Assembly: GCA_024613925.1 (NCBI GenBank)
Contig: GCA_024613925.1_4713.1
Length of the DNA stretch: 64,000 nt
Origin: a phage
Reading direction: 5' to 3' (one strand)
The notes under the pieces are model-generated. The model worked only from the letters and a program-made list of their open reading frames with translations, was not told the DNA's origin and made no database searches. Below, one piece after another: positions 2,641 through 54,410 of the stretch (positions are counted from its first letter, which is position 1; every line of letters starts with the position of its first letter). Made by a program: the position numbers and the translations under genes.

Positions 2641-5253
2641 TTAAGCGTCTGGTGTAAAATCAAAAGGAATGTCCGTACGAATGACATCATAGCGTTTTCC
2701 GAGGAAATAAAACTCTTCGGGAACCTGACCGGGAATAATGCTATCGCCGATGAACTGCGGATACGCCCAGATGTACTGAGTGAGTCCTTCGAACATATCC
2801 AGGTTATTTGCGTGGTTGCCCATGATACGTTTCCAGAGTTCGCGTTTATACGGTGTTTTAACATCGAACCCATAAAGCGGTGCAAGATCTTCACCAGGAA
2901 CAAATCCCAGGTAATAGTGAATCTGACTAACCGGGAAACCAAGCGTATCTCGCGGAATGGTGATCGCTTGCTCTGCCTTGGTGACATGCGTCTCAATAAT
3001 CCAGTCGTAACACTCCGAATAGAACCGATCGAATTTCTCTGGATTATACCACGCTTTGGGAAGATTCAGTTTCTCCGTGAACGCGTTCGACATGATCGTC
3101 GGCAAGAACGGAAGAATACCGGTTTTGATCTGCGTGTATTTCGATTTTACCCGGTTAACCAAATTCCAGCAACTGTATCCTAACTGTTCGTTACAAAACT
3201 CAACGTAGAGATCGTAGTCACCGCCGGATAATGGGTTGTTGATGTCACCGATGTCTGCGGCATATTTGTTGGGATATCGGTTATTGAAAGCCAGTTTGGT
3301 CTGGTAGTCGTAGATACACGGTTTGTTGTTCGCTGTATTGATCCACCACCAAGGTTCACCTACCTGCACACAAATGTCCTGGACATGAGGGTAGATGATA
3401 TCAGCGAATGCCGTTAACACATCCCCTAACCACGCCATCGCCTGTTGGTTACATGGAGACAGCAACCAAGATGGTGGCGTATATCCGGTTGCTGCGATGT
3501 TTCCTTCCCAATCCTGCTGCGCCCACTCGAACGGGCATGCGGTACTCATCAATTCGTAACTTAAACTGATGGTGACAGAGAAATGGTGTTTTGCAGCATA
3601 TGCGGCGAAAGCTTCATGCCACGCAATACAGGCCGGATTTAATACATCCGTGGTGTTTACCAGTAACTTACCTGCACTTGGCGTCCAGACAGTATCGTAG
3701 AAATGCGACATGCCAACATAATGCACTAATTCATCTTGATATCCCGCATAAACCAGGTTCTCAAATACGCGCTCCGGCGTGATGTTGTAATGGTCATCAT
3801 AAGCAGTTATCGCACGAAGTTCGTGTGGTGTACAGTGGTGGCGACTAACCGTCATTTCCTGATACACCCCATCGATAGGAAGAATCTCGAGGGTTAAGCC
3901 GAGGTCGATTGGCGTTTCCAGATAGGTCGTTTCAGTCGCACCTTCCTTATAATGTCGAGAACTCATGCTGAACATCAACGACGCTACCGATTCGAGTTCG
4001 ATAGGCTCGTCAGCATAGAACCCCGCCATTGCGTCATTGAAATCGATCGTCACGATTGCGCTTCTACCGTCTTCAGAGACATCGGTCGCATATCGGGTTA
4101 ATGAGATATACTGACGGCTATCGTCTTTGTGTACGACGGTTAAAACCGGCGGGTGTTCGGTATCTGCAAAGTTACGCTGGTCGCCAGTAAACGTGACCTT
4201 CGCTTTAAAGATCAAACCGAGTAACGATGTCATGGGATCATACGCAATACTGCCGTGATCCAGCGTATCCGTTGTCCGCCATTCTATCCCGACCAACCCG
4301 TTAGCGGTATGGCATCGCATATACGCATTAAGTGTCATGTCCTCACTGACAACCGCGAAGTTCTCTGTTGACTGACCGTTGATAATCCAATACATCGGTT
4401 GCCAGAGGTTACGCGTACCTTTTGCGTAGTGGTAGGTTGGTGCGCCTTTGGGATTGCCATTATTAAGATGAAATACAGCAGTACCTTGATAATGGTCGTT
4501 CGTATTAATCGGAACACTGTAAGCATCACCGAGGTCCGTACGTTCGACCTTCGTGACTGTTGCGTTTTCAAACAACCCACGTAACGCCGGTAAACCGATA
4601 TCTTCAGGTGCGTTTTCTCGACGAATCGCATCCGCGATGCGGTGGGCTAAGGCGGGGTAAATGGCATCACCCTGTTGTAGGTTTGCAAGACCTACAAAGC
4701 GATCGGGGTCGATGCCAGCAATCAATAACTCAACATCACCCTTCGTTCTATCGTTGTGAAGATATTTCAGTCCAGTAAGATCGAGGTGCTGAATAAGCGA
4801 CAACAGGTTGTATTTACGGTTTTCAACAGTTAGTACAAGATCGCCTGCCCAAACCAAACTTCCCTCATCCGCTGTTACTTTAACGGATTGTCGGCCTGTG
4901 GTAGACGTTGTTGTCGTTTTATTTAATTGTCCTTGTAGGAAGTCGGTTGCGAGGTCAAAGGCAATGCCGTAACGGTCAGCGACCGCTTGCATGATTTCAC
5001 GTAACTGGGTATCTTCTTCAATGATAATCTTGACAGGTATTCCCAAGAACGCTTTAGCGAGGTCTCGTTTAACCAACGAGACGAATACGGATTTGTAGTA
5101 TCGACTTCCATCTTTCCCTTTAAAAAGAATGGAGGTTGTTTCGGGTGACGATAGAATACGCGCAAATTCAACATCGTCGAAAGTAAGAGAAAGTCCGTTT
5201 TTCTCGTTGACCAATCTTAGTATTTCATTTTGCGCGGTTTCATGTAACTTCAT
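2641..5253 (-). CDS. tail fibre / tailspike-like receptor-binding protein with shared N-terminal adapter module (paralog A)
   Basis: 870 aa; N-terminal ~160 aa homologous to ORFs 10445..10993, 11128..12957, 52953..54410 (motifs RDLAKAFLGIPVK, DRYGIAFD). Confidence 0.6.
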   Translation of the reverse strand: MKLHETAQNEILRLVNEKNGLSLTFDDVEFARILSSPETTSILFKGKDGSRYYKSVFVSLVKRDLAKAFLGIPVKIIIEEDTQLREIMQAVADRYGIAFDLATDFLQGQLNKTTTTSTTGRQSVKVTADEGSLVWAGDLVLTVENRKYNLLSLIQHLDLTGLKYLHNDRTKGDVELLIAGIDPDRFVGLANLQQGDAIYPALAHRIADAIRRENAPEDIGLPALRGLFENATVTKVERTDLGDAYSVPINTNDHYQGTAVFHLNNGNPKGAPTYHYAKGTRNLWQPMYWIINGQSTENFAVVSEDMTLNAYMRCHTANGLVGIEWRTTDTLDHGSIAYDPMTSLLGLIFKAKVTFTGDQRNFADTEHPPVLTVVHKDDSRQYISLTRYATDVSEDGRSAIVTIDFNDAMAGFYADEPIELESVASLMFSMSSRHYKEGATETTYLETPIDLGLTLEILPIDGVYQEMTVSRHHCTPHELRAITAYDDHYNITPERVFENLVYAGYQDELVHYVGMSHFYDTVWTPSAGKLLVNTTDVLNPACIAWHEAFAAYAAKHHFSVTISLSYELMSTACPFEWAQQDWEGNIAATGYTPPSWLLSPCNQQAMAWLGDVLTAFADIIYPHVQDICVQVGEPWWWINTANNKPCIYDYQTKLAFNNRYPNKYAADIGDINNPLSGGDYDLYVEFCNEQLGYSCWNLVNRVKSKYTQIKTGILPFLPTIMSNAFTEKLNLPKAWYNPEKFDRFYSECYDWIIETHVTKAEQAITIPRDTLGFPVSQIHYYLGFVPGEDLAPLYGFDVKTPYKRELWKRIMGNHANNLDMFEGLTQYIWAYPQFIGDSIIPGQVPEEFYFLGKRYDVIRTDIPFDFTPDA

Positions 5254-5917: not shown

Positions 5918-6056
5918 GGTCTTGTCCTATACGTTGGTGGTTGAAATGGCGGATATCGGATGCATGCTGGACGTGAACCCTATAATTCGCGCTATCGCCA
6001 TTTTCTACCTCGTTTCTATTCTCAAAAAGGAAATTTCATACGATGACGCCATAGCA

Positions 6057-6086
6057 GCTCCTCCTTCCCTGACGGGTTGGAGGAGC
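6057..6086 (-). terminator. GC-rich hairpin (gctcctcc...ggaggagc) downstream of lipoprotein gene
   Basis: 8-bp stem plus inner ccc/ggg; core ttccctNacgggttgg shared with hairpin at 1617. Confidence 0.5.
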
Positions 6087-6641: not shown

Positions 6642-7226
6642 TTACACAGTTGTAGGAAATTCCGGCCAATCGATATTTGGTGCTGTTGATGTGTCAACGC
6701 GATGCAGAGCCACCCGATACTTTTTCCATGCCGTCAACATGGACACCTCTTCTTCCGTTGCGATCTCCAGATCCACAGCATCCTGAAGTGGCGTAATATG
6801 ATCATTCGCCGCCTTCATCAGACTGTTTTTTGTTTCTTCCGCCTCCCGGATCCGGAACAGTTTTTCTGCTTCCGTATCCTTCACCCAGGCTGTGCCGTCC
6901 CACTTCTGAAACTCCCCTTCCGGCGATAACCAGGTAACATTTTCCGGTAACGGACCGAGTTCAGAAATAAATAACGCGTCGCCGGAAGCCACGTCATAAA
7001 CCGTTTTACCCCGATGATCTTCAACGAGATGCCACGATTCATTTTCATTGTTAAAAACTGCCACAAAACCAGCAGGAATTTCCGGTGGGGCGATATCTGT
7101 AGAATTAGCTGGCAGACCTGTATGAGGCGGAATATATGCATCACCTTCACCAATAAATTCATTAGTTCCGGCCAGCAGATTATAAATTTTTATGGTCCGT
7201 GGTTGTTCACTCATTCTGAATGCCAT
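6642..7226 (-). CDS. tail fibre assembly protein (Tfa-type chaperone)
   Basis: C-terminal region [45 protein letters not shown] typical of lambda/P2-type Tfa; start ATG overlaps fibre stop (TAATG). Confidence 0.8.
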
Positions 7227-10200
7227 TATGCAAGCCTCACGATGTAGTTAAATGCAATGTTTTTGACGGTGTTTTCCGCGTTACCCGTAGCGTTAACGGT
7301 GATGGTGTGTCCATGTGATCCAATCGCAACCGAGTGCGTATGCGCACCAATACCTACAGTATGTGCATGTGCGCCAGAACTTGCTGCAGTACCAGACAGC
7401 GAGTGGGTATGTGCTCCATCTGATGATGTCTTCCCTGATATACGGGTCATACCTGAGCCACCTTCCAGTGGTACAATTGGTGCTTTGACTGAAACCTGGG
7501 TATAACCGTTAGGAAAGAGTGCACCATTATTAGAATTCGTATATGGTCCAGAACTCCGGTGTTGGTGCCCACCTGCACTATTTGCAGTCCCGCTCACACT
7601 GTGTGTATGTGCCCCGGTGTTATTCGTGGATTTAGTGCCGTAATCAAACGACGATGTGGTTTTCGTCCCCAAATCCGTATTGGATGCGCTGGCGCTATGG
7701 TTGTGCGATTTTATGCCGTCCTGTTCCTGAGACAATACGGCACGACCACTGGCAGGTTTGCCCTTAATCGTCCAGCCACGCATATCAGGAATAACGCCTG
7801 ACGGATAAGCCACTGCAAGTTTCGGGTATACAGATTTGTCAAAAGTCTGCCCTTGCATCAGAGCATAACCAGACGGAACGGTATCTGAAGGCCATGGAAT
7901 AGGCGCGCCAACAGGCAACTCCGGAGGTGCGGTAAACTCACCCAACTCCTTTATTGCCTCAATAAGTAGAGCTATTTGGGCAGAGATAGAGACCGTTAAA
8001 ACGTCCTCACCATTAGCGTCTTTATAAGTAGAAACTGCTTCAGGTAACACTTTTTGTAAGGTTTGTGCTACAACGCCAACCTCACGATGAACATTAGTGG
8101 ATTTAAAGTTCTCCTTTTTGTCGTATATTAAACCTGACAATTTCTTTACCTTCTCCAATGCATTAGTTATTGGAGAGAAATTACTTTTCAGCCGGGCGTC
8201 TGATCGTGTATAAACTTCGTTAAAGTTACCGTTCCCATCACAATCTATATTTCCAGTAACGTTGAGAGGTACATAGCTTTGAACAGCCTCTCTCGTAAAG
8301 CGTAAAACGTGGTCATAATCGGCGTAAACATCTAGAACGCCGTCCCCGTTCTGCTTAAAGCCGGTGTCATCATCCCCTAAAGCTATGGAGTTCTCACCTA
8401 AATGATTCTCGGTTCCAATACCCAGATTATCGCTTAAAATACTATCAATAGCAAATATTGAATGAGAACAATAAAACCCTCGTCCATTGTTAAAATCCAA
8501 AATGGTTTGTGCGTTCGTGCTTTCTGTCGCGGGATTAGTTGCTCCCCACTTATAGGTTGTTTGACCGACGGTATAATTCTTGGTCGGAACACTAACCGAT
8601 AACCCTTCTTCGGCAAAAACTTGAATAGGGAAAGCCCTACCTTCGACGTAAAAAACGCTGCACACATCATCATCTTCCGCACCTGTTACAATGGAATGGA
8701 TTGCGCGCTCATCAGTATCATATATCGAAAAATACCCTGCTGCGTATGAACCACGATCAGTCCAACCGCCCGGCATTACCGTTCCATTGAATTCGCAGTT
8801 ATTCATTGCATAATCACCACTGGCAGATGTGGTTGTAATAACCACTCTGGAAGCCAGTTCGCCAGTGCTACCAGTGGAACGCCGGAAAATAACTGGATAC
8901 CACTTTCCGCCAACGGCTTTAGACGGCGCGTTAAATACGTACTGCCGCATTCCTTTTTTCTTATCCACCTCGTCTTTGCTGTAAACATTAATGTTACTCA
9001 GGAAGCGACCCTTATCAGGAATATCTGCGCCGTTAGAACTGCGTTGCATAGCGCCCGCAGCTTTATCAACAGTGGTTTTCAAACCCAGGAAGTTAATGAT
9101 ATCGGCCGTCGACCCTTTCGCTAACAAATCACGCGCAGTCGAGGTGAAATCCGCTAACCCTACCTGATTACTACCGGTAAAATAAGGGAGTTTATTCGCT
9201 TCTGTTGTTAGGTTAGACCACGCCGTGAGCAGCGCGTTCAAAGGTTGTTTACCCGCCAACGTATTGGTTATTGTCGTTGCGAAATTAGGATCGTTCCCTA
9301 AAGCTTGAGCCAGCTCATTAAGCGTATTTAGCGCTTCTGGAGACGAGTCGATCAGTGATGCGATAGCACGCATCACAAATTCCGTGTTGGCAATCTGTCG
9401 ACTGCTATCGTTCTCTGCAGCCGTAGGCGCTGCCGGGATACCGGTGAACACAGGGCTATTAAGATCTGCCTTGAGAGCGATGAGACGTTTAAGTGCGTCG
9501 ACATCGACTTTCAGGTTTTCCCATCCGATGAGAGAACCACCACTGCTGGCATGGTAACGGTTGTACCAGAAGTCACCGTTAACGCCTAAAAAGAATATTC
9601 CCTTCTCTTCGTTTTGTGGGCCGGAACTATTTCGTGACGAGCTGATGTAATTGATTTCAATGAGGCCGTTAAACGTCACTCCCGGGATGATTTTGTTGTC
9701 TCCAGCCGACTGTGATACCTGGTAAATCCCCGGGGTTGCGGCTTTGACCCATGTTAAGAATTCTGTTACTCCAGCGGTACCGCTGAAATTCTTAACGTCG
9801 GTAAGTATTGCCCCATAACCGAACATACCGGGTAGAGCCACTCGTCCGTTGGTGCGGTCACGAATATCTGTTGCAACAACAGGCAATTGTTTACGAACGG
9901 CATTAACCGCTTTAGGCGTGGCCGATTTTGTCTCGTCGTCGCTATCGGTTTCATTACTTAGAATAGTTAAACCGCGCGTAGCAGTCGTTGCATCAGGAAG
10001 AAATGCGTTATCCAACACCTTAAGCTGTATTGCACTCGTATTACTAACAACGACATGCACCTGACAGTTAAGAACGCTGGTTGCGCCTTCGGTAGGCGTA
10101 GGCTTATATCTTTCTGGCGCACTGCAGACGGCAATCAGAACACCTTGGTCATCATACAAACCGATCTCACGTACCCAGAACCCACCTTGACCAGCAGGAA

Positions 10201-10438
10201 TAATACCCTCAACGATAATCCTGGTTGTGCTGTCACCATCCGCATGGATATTAGAAACTTCCCCACGATAAACTTCGTGAACAAGCGCTGTTTGGCTGGC
10301 GTTCGGGGTTGGGATCGAGCCGTTACCATCACCAACGGCAAAGTGTGTGATTTTTAGTTTCTCACCGTCGGGAAGTAACGCAGCGGTGATACGTTCTGCT
10401 CCTTTATCGGTAACTACCGTTATATATGCTGTACTCAT
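7226..10438 (-). CDS. long tail fibre protein with C-terminal His-x-His repeat tip
   Basis: 1070 aa; repeats [38 protein letters not shown]; Gly/Ser/Thr-rich; followed by Tfa gene. Confidence 0.8.
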
Positions 10439-10444
10439 GGTGTT

Positions 10445-10993
10445 TTATCCTGGATAAATAGTGATGATATCACCAATGACGGTTGTGGCACCGGCGTAAA
10501 GATGAGCCGGGGATACATCGTGTTGGTTTGTCACAGTAAGATCCAATCGACCACGCCAAACCATGGAGGTATTCGCGATGGGGATAGAGATCTTTTTGGA
10601 TATATCGTCACGAAAATCAATAACAGTGGCAAGGGTAACTGCATCAAAATCGACGTCGGGGTCAAAGACGAACCCGTATCGATCTGAAATCGCCCGAATA
10701 ATCGCATGTATAGTTGTTGTCTCAACGGACTCTAAAACGATTTTTACCGGTATTCCTAAAAATGCCTTCGCGATATCGCGTCGAGCGTAAACGATAAAAC
10801 TTTCACCGCACCACTTTGTTCCTTCATTTGCTGTGACGATCACTTTTGCCCTGTTAGCACCAGAACTCCCATCCAATGTTAATGTAAGATCGGAGCTGCT
10901 GAACACGCTACCGTTACGTTGGTTTATCAACGTAATCAGTTCGTCTTTCCATGGCGGGTAAAGTGAACGCATAAGCGCACCCTCCTCCAACAA
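10445..10993 (-). CDS. stand-alone N-terminal adapter module protein (paralog B) immediately upstream of long fibre gene
   Basis: 182 aa, homologous only to the N-terminal module of paralogs A/C/E (RRDIAKAFLGIPVKIV, SDRYGFVFD); stop 6 nt before fibre ATG. Confidence 0.55.
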   Translation of the reverse strand: MLEEGALMRSLYPPWKDELITLINQRNGSVFSSSDLTLTLDGSSGANRAKVIVTANEGTKWCGESFIVYARRDIAKAFLGIPVKIVLESVETTTIHAIIRAISDRYGFVFDPDVDFDAVTLATVIDFRDDISKKISIPIANTSMVWRGRLDLTVTNQHDVSPAHLYAGATTVIGDIITIYPG

Positions 10994-11127: not shown

Positions 11128-12957
11128 TTATGCTGCTACGTATCCCGGCCAACGTTCTCTTGGCCAGTTTGTTGCGCCCTGCCCAACGTTGTCCTTACCA
11201 GAAATTACATTACTTACGTCCCAACCGCTAAGGTCTTGGTTAAATGCGGTGTTATCGCGCATCATGAGATCGATCTCACGTAGTGACTGGGTATTCCAGC
11301 CGGAAATGTCTTGGTTAAATGCTTTATTGGAGGCAAACATGTTAGTCACGTTCTGTAATTTTGATGTGTTCCAACCACCGATATCACTATTGAACGACGT
11401 GTCCGAGAACATGCCTGCGGCGTTAATGAGGCTGTCTGTTTTCCAGTTAATCAGCTTGTCACCATCGAGCGCCCTGCAACCACCGAACATAAAACTCATA
11501 TCGTTAACTTTGGATACATTCCATTTATCTAACCCGTTACCAACGAACGCGTAACAAGACTGGAACATCCAGCTCATATCGGTAACCCGACTCACATTCC
11601 ATTTACTGAAGTCGAGGTTAAGTTTCTGACACCCTAAGAAGGTTTCACACATACTGGTGATACGACTAACATCCCACTCTTGGATGTTGGGGTCGTTAAG
11701 CGTCGTTAAATAGTTGAACAATTTGTCTAACGACGTCCATTTCTCTGGGATACGGTTTGGTACTGTATGAAGCGATGAAAGGTTATTGGTTGATGGAGAG
11801 CGGAACATGCCGTTATCCCAATTTACGATCTCCGTAATTTCGTACCCTCTGATCGTCTGAGTAGCGTAACCATCTTTCACCGTACCTGTAGCGACGATGG
11901 TATATTCACCAGTGTCCGCATAATCGTGGACGTAGGCATTGTTGCTGGCGGTCTCCGTCGTCTTAGTCCCATCACCCCAATCGATATTGACGTTATCCCA
12001 CCCACCTAGTTTGAACTGTACTTTGCCTCCGGTGGCTTTTAGGATGTATTTACCCCCATTGTCTGTATAATAACAGACAACCATTGGACCGTACAGATTA
12101 CCTATCTGCCAATCATCCTTTTGCGTTATTGCGATTTGCGCCGCACCACGCTGTACGAAGAGTACCGTACGATTCTCGGCAGTCTGTAATGTGGTTATTG
12201 CCTGAGCCTTATCGTCCTCGCTAATTTCACCAGACACCACTAAAGCGCTTAACATCCTTTCGAAGTATTCGATCGGTAACTCAGCTCCAACAGACTTATC
12301 AACAGACTGTACAGCAAGATCACCCAATGCTGCAGTGGTAGCCAATGCCAATGAACCCTTGGTCATATCTGTTTCTTGGATGTAATGCAGTCCCGTAAGC
12401 TGGTACGCTTGAATAATAGTAATCAGGTTCAGCGTATCGTTAACGACCTGTACTTGTAAATACCCGGACCACACATAGCTGTCTTCGGCAATTAGTAGAT
12501 CGACTGACTGAATACCTGATGTTTCAAAGGTGATCTTCTCATTAAGATCGGTTTCCAGGAAATCAACCGCGAGGTCGAAATTAATGCCGTACTTTTCAGC
12601 GATGGAATCTACGATATTTCTTAAAGTAACATCTGTGCTTACGATAAAACGTAACGGAATTCCTGTAAACGCTTTAGCAATGTCTCGACGAACATACGTA
12701 AGCGATTGTTCGAAGAAATACGGGCTGTTATCTCCAGGCTTGATGGTTACCTGGCACACTTCAGGATATTCGGCTGGGATGAACGATTCGAATTTAACAT
12801 CGGATTCTTTCAACGAAAGATTGTTATTCCGGTTCACTAACGCCAGAAGATCGGCTTTCCATCCGGGGTAAACTGTAGACATAAGCACTCCAAAGTTCAT
12901 GGGGCGGTAACCGCCCCGTTGGTTAAATTGTTGGTTTAATATCGCGTAATAGGGCAA
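11128..12957 (-). CDS. receptor-binding protein: N-terminal adapter module plus C-terminal BspA-like leucine-rich repeats (paralog C)
   Basis: Repeats WNVSRVTDMSWMFQSC, WNVSKVNDMSFMFGGC, GWNTSKLQNVTNMFAS, SGWNTQSL, SGWDVSNV; true start probably downstream near MSTVYPGWK. Confidence 0.65.
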   Translation of the reverse strand: MPYYAILNQQFNQRGGYRPMNFGVLMSTVYPGWKADLLALVNRNNNLSLKESDVKFESFIPAEYPEVCQVTIKPGDNSPYFFEQSLTYVRRDIAKAFTGIPLRFIVSTDVTLRNIVDSIAEKYGINFDLAVDFLETDLNEKITFETSGIQSVDLLIAEDSYVWSGYLQVQVVNDTLNLITIIQAYQLTGLHYIQETDMTKGSLALATTAALGDLAVQSVDKSVGAELPIEYFERMLSALVVSGEISEDDKAQAITTLQTAENRTVLFVQRGAAQIAITQKDDWQIGNLYGPMVVCYYTDNGGKYILKATGGKVQFKLGGWDNVNIDWGDGTKTTETASNNAYVHDYADTGEYTIVATGTVKDGYATQTIRGYEITEIVNWDNGMFRSPSTNNLSSLHTVPNRIPEKWTSLDKLFNYLTTLNDPNIQEWDVSRITSMCETFLGCQKLNLDFSKWNVSRVTDMSWMFQSCYAFVGNGLDKWNVSKVNDMSFMFGGCRALDGDKLINWKTDSLINAAGMFSDTSFNSDIGGWNTSKLQNVTNMFASNKAFNQDISGWNTQSLREIDLMMRDNTAFNQDLSGWDVSNVISGKDNVGQGATNWPRERWPGYVAA

Positions 12958-15900
12958 TATAATAGCCTAATCCTCGGAGGATCTCTCCACTCCAGAAACC
13001 AAAATACATTCCGTCTCTGCCGAGATTAGCGCTATCTGGTGCAGGACTCCACCCACCATTCATTACGTCATCAACGGTGTAGCGGTTGATGTAGTTCTCA
13101 ACGATTTCGTTATACGCATTAACCGCAACAGAATAGCCTTTATCGTTGGGATGTCCGTACAACATTGCTAACGACGCACCCGCCAACCATAATCCTGCCA
13201 TATGACCAGTAAAATCATTAGGGATAAAAGCAGGGGGTTTATCCATCGGAAAATCCGTAGGAGATTGATAAGCGTTTTCCTGTTGATACGTAAACAAGAA
13301 ATCGATCCAATGGCTGATGTAAGTGGTTAACTTCTCAGGGACGGCTAAACCACGATCGAGCAGTCCAGCATAAAGCCTCACCGCTGAGAAGAAAGCCCTC
13401 GGCTGATAACCAGACCATGCCGTCTGATCGCCGAAGTGGTACATCGTAAAATCATTAACTTTTGATCCGCTTGGCGCATCCCAACGATCCCACACGTACG
13501 CACTTGCCCCTGGCCCTAAAACCCCGAATTTCTGATAATACCACTGCTGCGAGTCATACCAGAAATTCACAACATTCTGAATCATGAGGTCACGTCGTTC
13601 AGCCGATACGTCCATATCCAGGAAGACCCATGGATGTTGGTAGCCGGGATAAGGCTGACCACGCCAACTGTCGAACGTCGGTGCGTTAGGGACATAGTTG
13701 TTCGAGAACGGAATAATACCCGGAGTATAAGGCAATGGATCCAGACGTTGGTTGACAATCGTACAATCGCCAACACGCAGTGTGCCCTCCGCCTCAAAGG
13801 TTGCTTTTAACGTAAACAGCATGGTATATCCGTCATCCGTGGTGTAAGTTGACGGTGGATTGTTGATGGCGTAAAGCTTAAATACCCCTTCAGCGATATC
13901 GCCGTCGTCAGGCAAGAACAGAATTTCAGTTGAACCATCGCCCCACACAGGTGCAGAAGGTTTAGGGTCAGTATCAGCGTGGCCCGGTTGATACCCTGAG
14001 AGCGTCCATCCGTTCGCCGAAAGCGTCAATGTATTTCTTGCTGTGGTGGCCGGTAGCATATACCACCATCGCCAGCCGTTTGTATCTTCTACACGAACGT
14101 TGTAGTCAATCGACGCGAAATAACTGACCTGCCTTACGATCTGTTTTGCGGTCGGATTGAATTCAAATTGCCCGCCTGCCGCAGTAAGCTGCGCTTTTAG
14201 GAACAACCCATCCCAGGAATCTTCCACCGCTTCGCTGAATTCTGTTGTGATGGCGACATCATCTTTCCAGCCGACTTTATCAGCCGATATCAACACAGAA
14301 CCTGTAACAGCATCGCCGGTTGGCGTTGAAGCTTCATCAACCGCATCAGCAGGAATCAACGAGCCTATTTTGAAATCCCATTCTTTCGGCTCGGCACTGG
14401 AAGGTAACACCAGCTTGTACGTTTTGGCTTTCGCTTCGGTTTTGTCCAAAGAAAGCGATAATGAGATCTCAACCGGAATTGCAATACCCGCTGTATCTTT
14501 ACCACCGCAGGTTACACGAAGAATTGAATCACGATTGACGCGGAACGGAATAGCCTGCTGTTCAAGGTAAATTTGTGCTGAGGATGCTTGAATCACGATC
14601 CAGCCGTCAGTATCACGTGTAATTGTGAACGGTGCTTTCGATGGATAGGTATACGTGTAAGCGATACCGTCGGTGTCGTAACGATCGGTTCCTTTTACCT
14701 GACGGAAGAACTTATCGTTGGCGTCGATACGAGTATATTCTTCAATCGTAAACAACGATGCCTTGTACGCTTTCTGATAGCGCTCCTGCTGCGTTAAACT
14801 GTATAAGGTGTAGGCTGCTTCACAAAACCACTGTTCAGCGTCTGACGCGTTTCCCATGTAGTCTCTGGTGACCGGCACCTGGATCGGTCGGTTATGCTGA
14901 CACTCGTTCGTTTTGATGAGGTATCCGCCATATTCAACAGGAACGCGGGGTGCCCACGCAACCAAATAAGAACCGCTGACGGACTTATCTTTGAGTACGA
15001 TGGTGCCCACCTCATCGTCAGTACACGCTTCAAGATCGTCCCCGCCCACACTTACGTATCGTTTTGTGCGTAACGCAACTTTCTCGATAGGGAACACCGT
15101 ACCCTTTGTATCCCAGTCAATCGTCCCATCATCATTGGTTTTGAACACATCGGCGTTCAAATTCTGCCAGCCGAGTTTACCCTCATAGACCTGAACAACA
15201 AGATCCATGTATTCCCCGAACGTTGGTGCCCCATGTGTTATTTTCCCGATACCGTTGGTGAATGTAACCGCGGTGTCATGGAAACCGCCATGTGTCGGGT
15301 AATCGTTTTTTGCAAGAGGATAATGGGCCAACACCGGCTGTTTACCATTAACAATCCAGTTAGCGATCCAGCGTGCCGGTGTATCCGGTGGTTCAAGACC
15401 CGCATAGAACGCTTTTATATACGCATCGAACGATGCCTCCGCTAATGTGAGATAGTGCGCTTTAAGCTTGGTATCATCCGTTGTATGACTGAATATACCC
15501 GCACCCAGAATTAACAACGACTGTCCTTCTGTTGTTGCGTCACCATCCGGTTGTGCTTCTTGTCGTGTTGCTGCAATGAAATGACGGTTGTTTACCATGA
15601 CCCCGCTTTCATTTAACACGTAATGATCGGTTTCTGGATCGGTAAACGTTCCTGTGTTTCGGGTTAAGAATCTTGCATGGCCATAACCAACGAAATTAAC
15701 CGGCGACGCTGTAATCATCCATTTACCGATAAGTTGAGCAACATCATTATAACGCTCGGATGCGGTGATTTGTTTCACGTACCAGTCTTTACGGTTAAAT
15801 GTCCAAAGCAGGAAGTAATAAGTTGTATCGATTTCCATCACTGGGAACGTCGGCGTTAACGGCTCCAGCATTAAGTAGTTGCTCCAGTCAATCTGTCCGC

Positions 15901-16519
15901 CAACAACCGATGGGGTAATCTCTAATAACTGACACCATTCATAACGGTCCGGTACACTACTGGACGTTGTTGGTAAAGGTAACTTGTATACGCCGGTACG
16001 ATTCAGATCGAACGCTTTTCTAGCCGATCCTAAATCAACATAAATACTCGATGATGCGCTTGCACTATACGCTCCCAAAGCACCTAGCGTTGACCGATAC
16101 ATTGAGATGAACAACGTATCTTTCCAGTACGGGTTATCCTTGGTTGGTTCTAAAGCGATTTGTGCGGAGATGCTGTTCTGTGTCCCTAACTGGTATGTTG
16201 CATTTAAAGATTCTTCCGTGAAATAACTTTCTGCAATTGCCAGATGGAACTGCTCGTTCAATAATGCGAGTGCGGCGCGTCCAGTAACATCCTCATTACC
16301 GGTTTCTTTTTTCATGATCGCGCCGAACGGAAACAATGTCGCGAATGACCGTTTTGGTTTATTAACCGTAACCGTCCCTGTGTAATTTCCAACACCATCA
16401 AGTTTTTGACTATCGCCAACAGCAGTGACTGCGATACCATCAGCCGGGATATCTGTTTTATTTAGTATATTGAGTTGGTCAACCAGATCCTGCTTATCGT
16501 CAGGTAAGAATGTCGCCAT
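12923..16519 (-). CDS. large (1198 aa) virion-associated protein of unknown function, possibly enzymatic tailspike
   Basis: Long ORF with SD GGTGGAG upstream of ATG; preceded by adapter-only ORF 16533..17363. Confidence 0.5.
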   Translation of the reverse strand: MATFLPDDKQDLVDQLNILNKTDIPADGIAVTAVGDSQKLDGVGNYTGTVTVNKPKRSFATLFPFGAIMKKETGNEDVTGRAALALLNEQFHLAIAESYFTEESLNATYQLGTQNSISAQIALEPTKDNPYWKDTLFISMYRSTLGALGAYSASASSSIYVDLGSARKAFDLNRTGVYKLPLPTTSSSVPDRYEWCQLLEITPSVVGGQIDWSNYLMLEPLTPTFPVMEIDTTYYFLLWTFNRKDWYVKQITASERYNDVAQLIGKWMITASPVNFVGYGHARFLTRNTGTFTDPETDHYVLNESGVMVNNRHFIAATRQEAQPDGDATTEGQSLLILGAGIFSHTTDDTKLKAHYLTLAEASFDAYIKAFYAGLEPPDTPARWIANWIVNGKQPVLAHYPLAKNDYPTHGGFHDTAVTFTNGIGKITHGAPTFGEYMDLVVQVYEGKLGWQNLNADVFKTNDDGTIDWDTKGTVFPIEKVALRTKRYVSVGGDDLEACTDDEVGTIVLKDKSVSGSYLVAWAPRVPVEYGGYLIKTNECQHNRPIQVPVTRDYMGNASDAEQWFCEAAYTLYSLTQQERYQKAYKASLFTIEEYTRIDANDKFFRQVKGTDRYDTDGIAYTYTYPSKAPFTITRDTDGWIVIQASSAQIYLEQQAIPFRVNRDSILRVTCGGKDTAGIAIPVEISLSLSLDKTEAKAKTYKLVLPSSAEPKEWDFKIGSLIPADAVDEASTPTGDAVTGSVLISADKVGWKDDVAITTEFSEAVEDSWDGLFLKAQLTAAGGQFEFNPTAKQIVRQVSYFASIDYNVRVEDTNGWRWWYMLPATTARNTLTLSANGWTLSGYQPGHADTDPKPSAPVWGDGSTEILFLPDDGDIAEGVFKLYAINNPPSTYTTDDGYTMLFTLKATFEAEGTLRVGDCTIVNQRLDPLPYTPGIIPFSNNYVPNAPTFDSWRGQPYPGYQHPWVFLDMDVSAERRDLMIQNVVNFWYDSQQWYYQKFGVLGPGASAYVWDRWDAPSGSKVNDFTMYHFGDQTAWSGYQPRAFFSAVRLYAGLLDRGLAVPEKLTTYISHWIDFLFTYQQENAYQSPTDFPMDKPPAFIPNDFTGHMAGLWLAGASLAMLYGHPNDKGYSVAVNAYNEIVENYINRYTVDDVMNGGWSPAPDSANLGRDGMYFGFWSGEILRGLGYYIALLRDIKPTI

Positions 16520-16532
16520 TATTTACTCCACC

Positions 16533-17363
16533 TTAATCGTAACTAAAATAAAGTTTGCTGCTGACGCCGCTATCGGAATGAGGTTTTAACACCAGAACAG
16601 AGCTTCCGAACGACGGAAGTATTGGAACATCTAAATCGTTCGCGTCAGCAACTTTTCCATTATAAACGACACTGGCTGTTGTGATGAGTTCCCAAGCTGA
16701 GGTATAACTCATTGAAATCAGCGATGAGGCTAAACGGAATGCGTTGTATCCTTCTGGACTATCTCCAACCGACATCGAACGTATCGCATCTTGCGGCGGT
16801 AAATTTAGCTTGATACCGTAAGTGCTGAATGTGTGGAAATCCCCTTGTTTACTATCTTCTGGATAGTACGAGGTTAGTGGTTCTCGCACCGTAAACAGTT
16901 CGCTAATATCGGTACTTACCGCTTTTCGTGCGAGGAATTGAAACGTACCGTACCACGATGCCGATGCATCAGAACGAACGGGAACAGATATGGTTTTCTC
17001 GCCGCTTTCAAATTTAACCTGTGATGCTAACGCTGAAGAATCAAAGATCGTTAAATCGATCTTCAACCCATACTTCTTAAACAGCTGCGTTAAGCAATCT
17101 GCTATCGTCGTCTTATCAGCAACGACAATAAAAGGTTGGTGTTTGATAAAGAGCTTATTAATGTCTCGACGTTGAAGATAAACCTGTACGGGGTCTTCGA
17201 CGTAGTAAACCGATTGTGGTGCGGGGGCTATAGAAAGGCGTAACCGACCCGATGCACCATACCAGGCTGGCGTTAACGTAATGTCTGACAGGGATAACGG
17301 ATGCTGGAGATAGGTGTTTATTTTAGATAACACTTCCTCCTGCCATGATGCTTCAGGATACAT
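16533..17363 (-). CDS. divergent adapter module protein (paralog D)
   Basis: 276 aa; weaker similarity to adapter module (RRDINKLFIKHQP, FKKYGLKIDL). Confidence 0.5.
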   Translation of the reverse strand: MYPEASWQEEVLSKINTYLQHPLSLSDITLTPAWYGASGRLRLSIAPAPQSVYYVEDPVQVYLQRRDINKLFIKHQPFIVVADKTTIADCLTQLFKKYGLKIDLTIFDSSALASQVKFESGEKTISVPVRSDASASWYGTFQFLARKAVSTDISELFTVREPLTSYYPEDSKQGDFHTFSTYGIKLNLPPQDAIRSMSVGDSPEGYNAFRLASSLISMSYTSAWELITTASVVYNGKVADANDLDVPILPSFGSSVLVLKPHSDSGVSSKLYFSYD

Positions 17364-42330: not shown

Positions 42331-42362
42331 CCCTCCTCCAACCCAACAGGGAAGGAGGAGGG
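42331..42362 (-). terminator. GC-rich hairpin ccctcctcc...ggaggaggg with inner ccc/ggg; followed on minus strand by TTATGCTCG
   Basis: 9-bp stem. Confidence 0.55.
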
Positions 42363-42371
42363 AATATGCTG

Positions 42372-42686
42372 TTATTCTGTTTTCGGTGTTGAACCGTTCT
42401 TCTTGAAGTCGGATTCGTATTTCACGTTAGAATCGAGAACCTCACGAACGGTTTTATCTGTACAACCACGAGCGATGTACGCATTAAGATCGTCGCGTAA
42501 TTTACGCATCGTTGTTTTATTAGCATCAGAAATATCTGACTTGGTAAGACGGAATGCAATTGCATCACGAACTTTATTCAGCGTTGCTGGGTTATTACGC
42601 TGTTCTGCAAATACCGCTTTGATGAATGTACCGCTATCTTTCGAAGCGATGGCTGCATCAAGAATTTCAATATGCTTTTCAGACAT
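42372..42686 (-). CDS. hypothetical protein
   Basis: 104-aa ORF. Confidence 0.5.
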   Translation of the reverse strand: MSEKHIEILDAAIASKDSGTFIKAVFAEQRNNPATLNKVRDAIAFRLTKSDISDANKTTMRKLRDDLNAYIARGCTDKTVREVLDSNVKYESDFKKNGSTPKTE

Positions 42687-52952: not shown

Positions 52953-54410
52953 ATGAAACTCAAACAAAGCTGGAAAGACGAACTTCTCGCGTTAGTAAAT
53001 AGCAAAAACGGTTTACAGCTGACATTAGCCGACGTAAAATTTGAACTAACTGAACCGGTAAGCGAAGTGCCCGGAACGGTTGTTGTTACGATCAAACCGA
53101 ACGATAATAGCCGTTACTTTAACGAGCAGTCTCTGACCTACATCCGTCGAGACATCGCTAAAAACTTCACCGGGATCCCGTTACGGGTTATCGTTAAAAA
53201 TGATACTGCTGTACGGGATATCATCAACACGATCGCCGAACGTTACGGATTAGTATTTGACACAACCGTCGACTTCCTCGAATCCGAGCTGAATAAACAA
53301 ATTACGTTCGAAGACACCGGTATTAAAGACATTACGGTTCCGGTTGCAAACACGTCTTATGTTTGGGCTGGTAATCTTCAGTTCAATATCGCTAACGATA
53401 CGTTGAGCTTGATTACAATCATCAAGCAAACCAATCTTACGAATCTGGTTTATCTGGATGGTGTTGAAGCTGACACATCGGGTTCGTTACTATTAGCGAC
53501 GGCCTCGATTATTGACGATACCGGAAATACCGAAGCGGCTGAAGGTATCCTTGACGCCGCGTACTTCCAGAATGTCCTGAACGTCATGGTTCGTTATGGT
53601 GATATTACCAGCGAACAAATGCAACAAGCAATGCAGACAATTAACCAAAGCGAAGACGCACGTAAAGTAGTGACGAGGTCATACGGTGACGTCGAATTAC
53701 TGGTAACCGCCAAGAAAGATTGGGTTATCGGTAGCCTTAAGGGTGTTATGGCTGTTGTTCGCGTTCTACCTAAACCAATCCAATACGTTTTTAAAACAAA
53801 AGGCGGCAGCGTTGCAATGTCATTAGCAGGTTGGAAAAATGTTTCCATCGATTGGGGTGATGGGACTAAGACGACGGAGACCGCCAGCAATAATGAATAT
53901 CGGCACTACTATGCGGACGGTGACACTACAGAACGTACGGTCGTCGCTACGGGTACTCCCTCCATAATCGTCGATACATCCGCAATGCATGGCTTCATTG
54001 GTGAAAACATCACTGAAATCGTTGACTGGAACAACGGATTACCTTACGCCCCAGTATACCTTTCGAGGTACAATTTAATTAAGGTTCCCGATTATATCCC
54101 GTCATATTGGACATCGTTAAATGGTATGTTTATGCAATGCCGCGCTCTTAACGACGTGAACATCACCAAATGGAACACCAGCAACATTACTTCAATGGAT
54201 AACCTCTTCTACAATTGCGCTGCGTTCAATCAGCCGATCGGTTCGTGGGATGTTTCGTCTGTTAAGAGTGTAAACAATATGTTGTCTGGGTGCTCCGCGT
54301 TCAATCAGGATCTGAGTGGTTGGACATTCCCGGCAGGCACTTCACACATCGACTACGACAACACTACCCACGCATGGCAGTCCGATTACAAACCACACTT
54401 CACCGAGTAA
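52953..54410 (+). CDS. receptor-binding protein: N-terminal adapter module plus C-terminal BspA-like leucine-rich repeats (paralog E)
   Basis: N-terminus closely matches paralog C (SLTYIRRDIAKNFTGIPLRVIV, AERYGLVFD); repeats KWNTSNITSMDNLFYNCAAFNQPIGSWDVSSVKSVNNMLSGCSAFNQDLSGW. Confidence 0.65.
   Translation: MKLKQSWKDELLALVNSKNGLQLTLADVKFELTEPVSEVPGTVVVTIKPNDNSRYFNEQSLTYIRRDIAKNFTGIPLRVIVKNDTAVRDIINTIAERYGLVFDTTVDFLESELNKQITFEDTGIKDITVPVANTSYVWAGNLQFNIANDTLSLITIIKQTNLTNLVYLDGVEADTSGSLLLATASIIDDTGNTEAAEGILDAAYFQNVLNVMVRYGDITSEQMQQAMQTINQSEDARKVVTRSYGDVELLVTAKKDWVIGSLKGVMAVVRVLPKPIQYVFKTKGGSVAMSLAGWKNVSIDWGDGTKTTETASNNEYRHYYADGDTTERTVVATGTPSIIVDTSAMHGFIGENITEIVDWNNGLPYAPVYLSRYNLIKVPDYIPSYWTSLNGMFMQCRALNDVNITKWNTSNITSMDNLFYNCAAFNQPIGSWDVSSVKSVNNMLSGCSAFNQDLSGWTFPAGTSHIDYDNTTHAWQSDYKPHFTE

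Follow-up and report, generated by a model that had tools for sequence, protein, structure and literature searches.

DUF285 leucine-rich repeats on DUF7941 modules in a Goslar-like jumbo phage: a pair of paralogs with shared tracts, one of them apparently lost from the reference phage

Two genes located approximately 40 kb apart on opposite strands of one phage contig end in tandem repeats of about 25 residues, which raises the question of what these proteins are, how the two genes are related and what they may do. The stretch analyzed here (the window) comprises 64,000 nucleotides (nt) of contig GCA_024613925.1_4713.1 (NCBI GenBank assembly GCA_024613925.1), and the two open reading frames (ORFs) occupy 11128..12957 on the minus strand (gene A) and 52953..54410 on the plus strand (gene B). 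An earlier interpretation made from the letters alone (the sequence-only reading) had described them as two fibre paralogs with BspA-like, DUF285-type leucine-rich repeats (LRRs), duplicated and then relocated or inverted. Both ORFs, their C-terminal tandem repeats, their opposite orientation and their distance were confirmed. The window was collinear with Escherichia phage vB_EcoM_Goslar, a 237-kb jumbo chimallivirus, at an identity of 95–96% over most of the compared stretch, and the window phage is a close relative of Goslar. A four-part architecture and the paralogy of the two proteins were established, and the LRR fold was obtained on predicted models.

The maximal ORF of gene A begins with a TTG at 12957 and overlaps the gene upstream. 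The true start is probably the ATG at 12882 (MSTVYPGWKADLL), because GGAG precedes this codon, the resulting N-terminus aligns with those of both paralogs (MSTVYPGWKADLL / MKLKQSWKDELL / MRSLYPPWKDELI), and the product of 584 aa has the modal length among approximately 50 clusters of gene A orthologs (579–590 aa). The gene as delimited in this manner (11128..12882, minus strand) was divided with Pfam, NCBIfam and AlphaFold2 into an N-terminal DUF7941 module (residues 1–170, 12373..12882), a mostly alpha-helical linker (residues 171–238, 12169..12372), a beta-sandwich with a PKD-like W-G-D-G motif (residues 239–354, 11821..12168) and a DUF285/PARCEL LRR solenoid (residues 355–584, 11131..11820). 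Gene B (485 aa) has the same order of parts, and its LRR is located at residues 359–485 (54027..54407, plus strand). The DUF7941 family (PF25613) was matched with 85.8 bits by gene A and 89.3 bits by gene B, at a cut-off of 27. The score for PKD (PF00801) was below the threshold (19.0 bits against a cut-off of 23.5, E 0.0014) over residues 255–347 of A, with the match within 283–344. The I-D-W-G-D-G motif was invariant and was placed by the models in the beta-sandwich.

The repeats were assigned to DUF285. Pfam DUF285 (PF03382) was matched with 155.7 bits (E 5.4e-46) in gene A and 80.1 bits (E 1.4e-22) in gene B (cut-off 25), and the NCBIfam model TIGR02167, the 26-residue PARCEL repeat, with 66.8 and 37.7 bits (cut-off 30); neither another family nor a lack of periodicity was found. 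A period of 25/26 residues was detected in the C-terminal parts of both proteins by BLOSUM autocorrelation (z of about 5, with harmonics at 50/51), and the same autocorrelation on an N-terminal control gave no comparable peak. The motif read earlier from the letters was correct and can be written W-N/D-x-S-x-V...M..MF..C.AFNQD-L/I-SGW. When units were counted from the conserved W as anchor, gene A had seven units of 21–26 aa (residues 382–553) and gene B had three (residues 386–456), each array with an N-cap and a C-cap; the difference in length between the two proteins, 99 aa, corresponds to four units. Tandem Repeats Finder (TRF) detected no tandem repeat in the DNA, so that the periodicity was present at the protein level only and the units are old. 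The BspA label stood only in part. RefSeq applies the name "BspA family" to DUF285 proteins, including the Goslar protein gp161 discussed below. However, Pfam LRR_5 (PF13306), the repeat of Tannerella forsythia BspA, was matched by neither C-terminal domain, even at E ≤ 10, and DUF285 alone was matched; the repeat is therefore not of the BspA type in the strict sense, as judged by these family profiles.

The AlphaFold2 models, which were built on ortholog alignments, were confident from about residue 200 to the C-terminus. The predicted local distance difference test (pLDDT) values, taken as means of 10-residue blocks, were mostly above 80 in this region (63–98 in A and 58–97 in B); in A they were 68–94 in the linker, 63–96 in the sandwich and low (26–66) in the DUF7941 module. 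The predicted LRR formed a right-handed curved solenoid that could be superimposed on solved LRR proteins. A Foldseek search against the Protein Data Bank (PDB) gave no match, and phmmer and an alignment profile gave 0 matches among PDB sequences, so no solved DUF285 structure was detected by sequence search. Against predicted viral structures, Foldseek returned 55 matches at E ≤ 1e-3, which were annotated as DUF285, "BspA family" or 26-residue repeat and came from Klebsiella phage N1M2, Aeromonas phage D3, cyanophages, Aureococcus anophagefferens virus and Megaviridae.

The designation of the two genes as fibres had to be given up. No tail-fibre, collar, chaperone or fibrous-repeat match was obtained for A or B in Pfam or PHROG, whereas the adjoining gene at 7226..10438 carries all of these; hence, to the extent that domain matches can tell, A and B are not classical trimeric tail fibres, and their common N-terminus is the chimallivirus DUF7941 module. 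This module was found by Pfam in five window genes: A, B and the orthologs of Goslar gp086 (2641..5253, minus strand, 870 aa, also with NCTSP_N and TIM-barrel_NCTSP domains), gp091 (gene C, 10445..10993, minus strand, 58.8 bits to PF25613) and gp093 (16533..17363, minus strand, 276 aa). Gene C, whose product of 175 aa from its ATG (10445..10972) consists of the module only, lies directly downstream of gene A and in tandem with it. The gene directly upstream of A, an ortholog of gp092 (12923..16519, minus strand, 1198 aa, PHROG "tail protein"), was not matched by Pfam and aligned only weakly with the module; its DUF7941 status was assigned only by the preprint on this family (bioRxiv 10.64898/2026.04.21.720040). 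At least six genes of the window thus carry the module, and the earlier claim of two paralogs was right about the relation of A to B and too low in number. Gene A is placed inside a tandem DUF7941 cluster in the order gp093–gp092–A–gp091–fibre. Two further searches for homologs of the N-terminal module yielded no more than 3 and 14 close relatives.

Gene B is an already described protein. The DNA around it was 94.9% identical to that of Goslar over 6 kb, and gene B was collinear with gp161, which RefSeq names "BspA family LRR surface protein". The protein identity between the two orthologs was only 81%, with the surrounding DNA 95% identical, and the LRR was the part that diverged fast. The slot of gene B is isolated, lies between helicase genes and is conserved in Goslar and GCA_961210045. 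DUF7941 was defined as a chimallivirus-specific family with ten members in Goslar, namely, gp22, 23, 31, 33, 34, 86, 91, 92, 93 and 161 (bioRxiv 10.64898/2026.04.21.720040), and the collinearity with Goslar places A and B in such a genome. In the same preprint, purified gp22 formed filaments in negative stain, PhiKZ gp126 and gp127 were placed at the peripheral baseplate, and a "DUF7941 fibre cloud" was proposed for host recognition, in which gp86, gp92 and gp161 bear carbohydrate-binding, glycosidase or LRR domains. Goslar gp161 was listed there as DUF7941+LRR and was detected by mass spectrometry with 27 peptides, 54% coverage and approximately 111 copies per virion (Table S4); DUF285, BspA and PARCEL are unmentioned in its main text (bioRxiv 10.64898/2026.04.21.720040).

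A and B aligned from end to end with 47% identity over 447 aa. Their background nucleotide identity was approximately 50% and their third-position identity approximately 0.3, with synonymous sites saturated, which indicates that the duplication is old. A tract of 44 nt in the sandwich domain of A (11942..11985, minus strand) was nevertheless identical at 44 of 44 positions to its partner in B (53847..53890, plus strand); no exact A/B identity of this length is expected by chance. The tract is the core of a 95-nt inverted repeat (11914–12008 / 53824–53918, 80% identity), which is the longest in the window, and the third-position identity around it rose to 0.80–0.87 in windows of 15 codons. In GCA_961210045.1, both genes lie on one contig of 235,874 nt in the same relative orientation as in the window, and there the two were 100% identical at codons ~302–345 (about 130 nt). 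Furthermore, in the ortholog sets, this segment occurred in at least three allele classes that A-type and B-type proteins have in common. These patterns show recurrent gene conversion between A and B in the PKD-like domain, and the converted part coincided with the most variable part among orthologs (residues 281–340 of A in the entropy profile). A diversity-generating retroelement was rejected as the cause of the tract, since flanking mismatches affected all four bases and the variants looked like discrete alleles, no scan for a reverse transcriptase having been made. No support was found for an inversion of the 41 kb that separate the inverted tracts, because in the one other genome that carries both loci they are oriented to each other as in the window.

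Goslar has no gene A. The alignment to Goslar stopped at window position 11139 and restarted at 12886, and both sides met at the same Goslar base (103564), so that a segment of 1,746 nt (11140..12885) has no Goslar counterpart. Goslar keeps the hairpin upstream of this segment (GGGGCGrTTACCGCCCC), then ATGAACTTTGGAGTG, which includes the ribosome-binding site of gene A (GGAG), and the last 11 nt of gene A (GTAGyAGCATAA); 15 leader nt (five codons) are among the retained letters, and the remnant reads MNFGV followed by a stop. A ribosome-binding site without its gene, together with the retained 3' end, indicates that gene A was deleted in the Goslar lineage and not inserted in the window phage. 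An insertion was rejected on the basis of these scar remnants and because gene A fills this position in five diverged genomes as well. In each of these Goslar-like contigs, gene A comes immediately upstream of the gp091 ortholog and the tail-fibre gene; three of them have the gp093 and gp092 orthologs ahead of gene A, and two lack both. Gene A is thus what normally fills this slot, and Goslar, the reference phage, has lost the gene. This synteny did not bear out the relocation or inversion proposed by the sequence-only reading, since A sits in a tandem-cluster slot kept in five genomes and B in a slot kept in Goslar and GCA_961210045. The recent events are the loss of A in Goslar and the A–B conversion.

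The slot itself is recombinogenic. A chimera of A and gp091 was observed in one IMG/VR contig and in two protein clusters: some 80 residues from the start of A lead into the rest of gp091, with the junction at the conserved RRDIAKAF-GIP motif. The chimeric genes encode 176–182 aa; one is located at 2983..3531 of IMGVR_UViG_3300045988_173921, and the others are P0122 and P0123. They imply unequal recombination between tandem DUF7941 paralogs, by which the distal domains of gene A were removed. In the IMG/VR contig, no large tail-fibre ORF (at least 150 aa) was present behind the chimera and a Tfa-like ORF came next; this contig may be misassembled. The two contigs with gene A and without gp092 (1198 aa) and gp093 orthologs were GCA_961210045.1 (contig CAUIQD010000007.1) and ERZ19210725 NODE_6, which show that the DUF7941 cluster varies by presence or absence of whole genes.

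A-type proteins formed approximately 50 clusters at 90% identity with 370 members, which were 59–91% identical to the A protein of the window, and B-type proteins formed 38 clusters with 235 members. IMG/VR yielded only four loci, and when the region of gene A was compared by megablast with the complete E. coli genomes in RefSeq, no match was obtained. Many A-type sequences were located on Goslar-like contigs of 235–248 kb, which came from draft bacterial assemblies and gut metagenomes, and the NCBI records concerned were labelled Escherichia coli, Salmonella enterica, Shigella flexneri and Enterobacter hormaechei. The phage collection holds only Goslar itself from this clade. These observations suggest that Goslar belongs to a clade of some size whose members are uncultured or live in a carrier state.

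The variation among orthologs was distributed unevenly along the proteins. The DUF7941 module was the most conserved part of A orthologs in the entropy profile, with values of 0.05–0.36 (0.05–0.16 in B-type proteins) compared with 0.7–1.2 in the sandwich. Against the GCA_961210045 ortholog, the ratio of non-synonymous to synonymous substitution rates (dN/dS) of gene A was 0.17 overall, with 0.13 for the DUF7941 module and 0.08 for the LRR, and the purifying selection expressed by the overall value shows that A is a working gene. The module of gene B had a dN/dS of 0.07 against Goslar, and the range for this module was 0.06–0.13. The LRR of gene B (residues 356–485) differed from that of gp161 by 40.5 non-synonymous and 4.5 synonymous differences, which gives a dN/dS of 2.5 (Fisher p 0.048). 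Within the repeat unit, W1, V3, V6, M12, F13, F19, N20, Q21 and L23 were the least variable positions (entropy ≤0.20 at positions 1, 3, 6, 19, 20, 21 and 23), M9, C16, D22 and S24 varied moderately, and positions 10, 11, 15 and 17 varied most (entropy ≥0.9 at positions 8, 10, 11, 15, 17 and 18). A conserved framework with variable hydrophilic positions, as is characteristic of PARCEL repeats, was thus present. The distal half of these proteins diversifies: the framework is kept, defined positions vary, and the B LRR has an excess of non-synonymous change. A conserved anchor, variable tips and a location among fibre and baseplate genes are the usual signature of host-recognition proteins.

On these grounds a receptor-binding role of A and B is plausible, and we regard it as rather probable, with clear reservations, that both are modular accessory adhesins, which would be docked through DUF7941 on baseplate-associated filaments and would bind a host-surface ligand with the PKD-like and LRR end. 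According to the literature on the paralogs, the DUF7941 module may dock A and B onto or into head-to-tail DUF7941 filaments that radiate from the peripheral baseplate. By analogy, the helical linker would hold out the PKD-like sandwich and the DUF285 solenoid (seven units in A and three in B), this distal part would be the ligand-binding end, and it would most likely make the first, reversible contact with a component of the host surface. The presence of gene A in the fibre/DUF7941 cluster, in the window as well as in five other genomes, is consistent with such a role. Several points weigh against it. The external location of A and B on the virion and their binding are inferred. The DUF7941 filament cloud is itself a proposal resting on negative-stain images of one paralog and AlphaFold predictions. 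The preparation in which gp161 was detected also held non-virion chimallin (approximately 126 copies) and PhuZ (bioRxiv 10.64898/2026.04.21.720040), and contaminants at a similar abundance make the virion association of gp161 not secure. The first 170 residues, i.e., the DUF7941 module, were modelled poorly in both proteins (pLDDT 25–75), and a profile search for a solved structure of this module was null, so that our data give no link of their own to PhiKZ gp127. Moreover, the dN/dS above 1 for the B LRR came from one pairwise comparison with a borderline p value, and Goslar infects E. coli without gene A, which makes A dispensable at least on the laboratory host.

This dispensability for plaque formation also fits a reading in which A and B are on the virion surface and bind not a bacterial receptor but material other than the host (gut mucus, extracellular matrix or particles, for example), which would keep the phage where its hosts live, as has been proposed for Ig-like capsid decorations. 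Bacterial surface proteins of the BspA/DUF285 type are adhesins for animal-host surfaces, the distal module of A resembles Flavobacteria surface proteins with PF03382, PKD and type IX secretion system (T9SS) domains, and the samples that yielded Goslar-like contigs are of gut and faecal type. However, among closely related phages the sandwich and LRR have diversified fast and into allele-like forms, as would sooner be expected from an arms race with variable bacterial surfaces than from the binding of conserved mucins, and the gene sits in a fibre/baseplate module; binding of non-host material was accordingly judged unlikely. The same diversification bears on the idea that the LRR mediates protein contacts within the virion, where A and B would be structural connectors and might serve, for example, as caps, cross-links or anchors of DUF7941 filaments or of the tail fibre. 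The location of gene A between the fibre gene and other DUF7941 genes would suit a connector, and the converted A–B tracts could reflect the fit to one common partner. Interfaces are normally conserved, whereas the distal domains were the most variable here, with the dN/dS of the B LRR above 1, and the slot tolerates full loss of A in Goslar as well as A/C fusions elsewhere. A connector role thus seems improbable.

A third possibility places the proteins inside the host: A and B may be packaged and injected, or may be intracellular LRR effectors that bind a host protein, for instance in anti-defence or takeover. Gene B lies outside the structural cluster and is flanked by helicase and RNA-polymerase genes, and gp161 (~111) was about as abundant in the preparation as the contaminating chimallin (~126). 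Many bacterial LRR effectors target host proteins, and the structural matches of A included IpaH, SspH1, SlrP, YopM and XopL. However, the N-terminal module is common to the PhiKZ peripheral-baseplate proteins and to gp086/gp092-type proteins with glycosidase-like domains, gene A is embedded in the fibre module, and the combination of PKD-like and DUF285 domains is typical of extracellular proteins. An effector role was considered very unlikely. With the adhesin interpretation retained as the working one, a bolder extension of it may be stated, which we regard as doubtful. A and B would form a coupled, exchangeable host-recognition pair, in which repeated conversion across 40 kb of inverted DNA moves alleles of the PKD loop and a single phage thereby displays matched binding modules on a long and a short LRR arm. 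The presence or absence of A would act as a host-range switch, and the DUF285 LRRs would be a primary specificity determinant of the chimallivirus fibre cloud.

The surroundings of gene A had further features. A perfect hairpin (GGGGCGGTTACCGCCCC, 12890..12906, minus strand) lies between the gp092-like gene and gene A and is the one kept in Goslar beside the deletion scar; it has no T-run and is not a canonical intrinsic terminator. Scans for sigma-70 promoters and terminators performed no better than shuffles, as is to be expected from a phage with RNA polymerases of its own. An antisense ORF of 121 aa (11189..11554, plus strand) covers repeat units 3–7 of gene A, with none over the repeats of gene B; it is probably a by-product of the repeat codon pattern and not a gene. 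The distal tail-fibre module (6642..10438) was swapped with respect to Goslar 98471..102861, and positions 6683..9174 of the window had no similarity to Goslar. In the fibre gene of this module (7226..10438, 1070 aa), the Peptidase_S74 chaperone domain is internal (residues 746–802) and is followed by a Collar domain and then by His-rich repeats of the GAHTHS type, which span approximately 180 residues; the gene that comes next (6642..7226) is a Caudo_TAP assembly gene. The S74 domain is normally C-terminal and self-cleaving, so that 270 residues behind it are odd. Other Goslar-like genomes had fibres of 834–1268 aa at this slot. A second long inverted repeat (6043..6085 / 42333..42375, 43 nt, 79%) contains GGAGGAG-rich sequence.

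Chimalliviruses are considered for therapy, and the phage nucleus shields them from most host defences, which leaves adsorption as the main barrier. To our knowledge, a single study has addressed the structure and proteome of this group, and it was done on Goslar, whereas most of the wild relatives sampled carry gene A, as the cluster counts above show. If LRR proteins do aid host recognition, Goslar would under-represent the adsorption apparatus of its clade, and gene A would be an obvious candidate for host-range engineering. Moreover, the compact versions of DUF285 with three and seven units are convenient structure targets, because no solved DUF285 structure was found by the sequence searches.

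The sequence-only reading had called the repeat unusual in enterobacterial phages, which holds for its overall frequency. In a tblastn search with the C-terminal 237 residues of gene A, DUF285 repeats were matched in 112 of 50,697 phage records, 43 of which were Synechococcus ACG-2014f isolates. Among the matches listed, most of the others were large-genome phages (OBP, Yubaba/Sureiya, N1M2, Kc263, AH04, pEt-SU, Aeromonas D3/D6/LAh10, Lak, Vibrio and PAU), and further matches came from Campylobacter phages (CP21-like, 175–183 kb), Listeria phages and others. The repeat nevertheless recurs in jumbo phages of Enterobacterales, namely, Goslar, Klebsiella N1M2, Kosakonia Kc263, Serratia Yubaba/Sureiya, Erwinia AH04, Edwardsiella pEt-SU and Citrobacter Tr1, and PARCEL/DUF285 ORFs were noted earlier in jumbo phages, e.g., Vibrio phage pir03. 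DUF285 is rare in phages overall, yet it is a recurrent and previously annotated feature of large phages, including those of Enterobacterales.

Phage proteins of a comparable kind are the giant DUF285 proteins of OBP-like jumbo phages, some of which infect Enterobacterales (Pseudomonas OBP_145, Klebsiella N1M2_118 and Serratia Yubaba_00370). Their C-terminal DUF285 repeats were 37–42% identical to A, and their genes adjoin a baseplate gene. They differ from A in their length of 1,700–1,950 residues (OBP_145, 1713 aa), which is approximately three times that of A, and in their many more repeats (six Pfam DUF285 stretches in OBP_145), and no DUF7941 was detected in them by Pfam. The PARCEL/DUF285/TIGR02167 surface lipoproteins of Mycoplasma and Listeria (Roske et al., 2010; PMC2996958) belong to the same profile families with a period of 25–26, and they have in common with A and B a conserved framework with varying hydrophilic positions. 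Opposite-strand ORFs are frequent over DUF285 coding tracts (PMC2996958), and one lies over the repeats of gene A, with none over those of gene B. Unlike these lipoproteins, A and B have no lipoprotein signal and carry a phage-specific N-terminal module, and their repeat DNA has no detectable tandem similarity. Flavobacteria surface proteins with PF03382, PKD and T9SS sorting domains reached 30% identity over 54% of A.

BspA-type LRRs in the strict sense (T. forsythia BspA; PDB 4fs7, BACOVA_04585; PDB 6mlx, TpLRR) are represented by the LRR_5 model that A and B did not match, and in structural comparison plant receptor kinases or internalins were at least as close to A as these proteins were. 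The same repeat fold was present in DUF285/"BspA family" and FNIP LRRs of giant eukaryotic viruses (Aureococcus anophagefferens virus, Megaviridae and CroV Crov539, PDB 7zal), with Foldseek E values of 1e-10 to 1e-11 and 25–33% identity; these proteins have other hosts and other N-terminal contexts. The closest comparison remains that with gp161, which is the ortholog of gene B in the same slot, with the same architecture and 81% aa identity, and a paralog of gene A with the four-part layout at approximately 47% identity. Gene A differs from gp161 and B in its seven repeat units instead of three and from gp161 in its place in the fibre/DUF7941 cluster, and the published structure and proteomics are silent on it because it is absent from Goslar. 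To the described gp161 type are thus added gene A as a new, longer member, the scar of its clean deletion, its chimeras with gp091 and the tracts converted between A and B.

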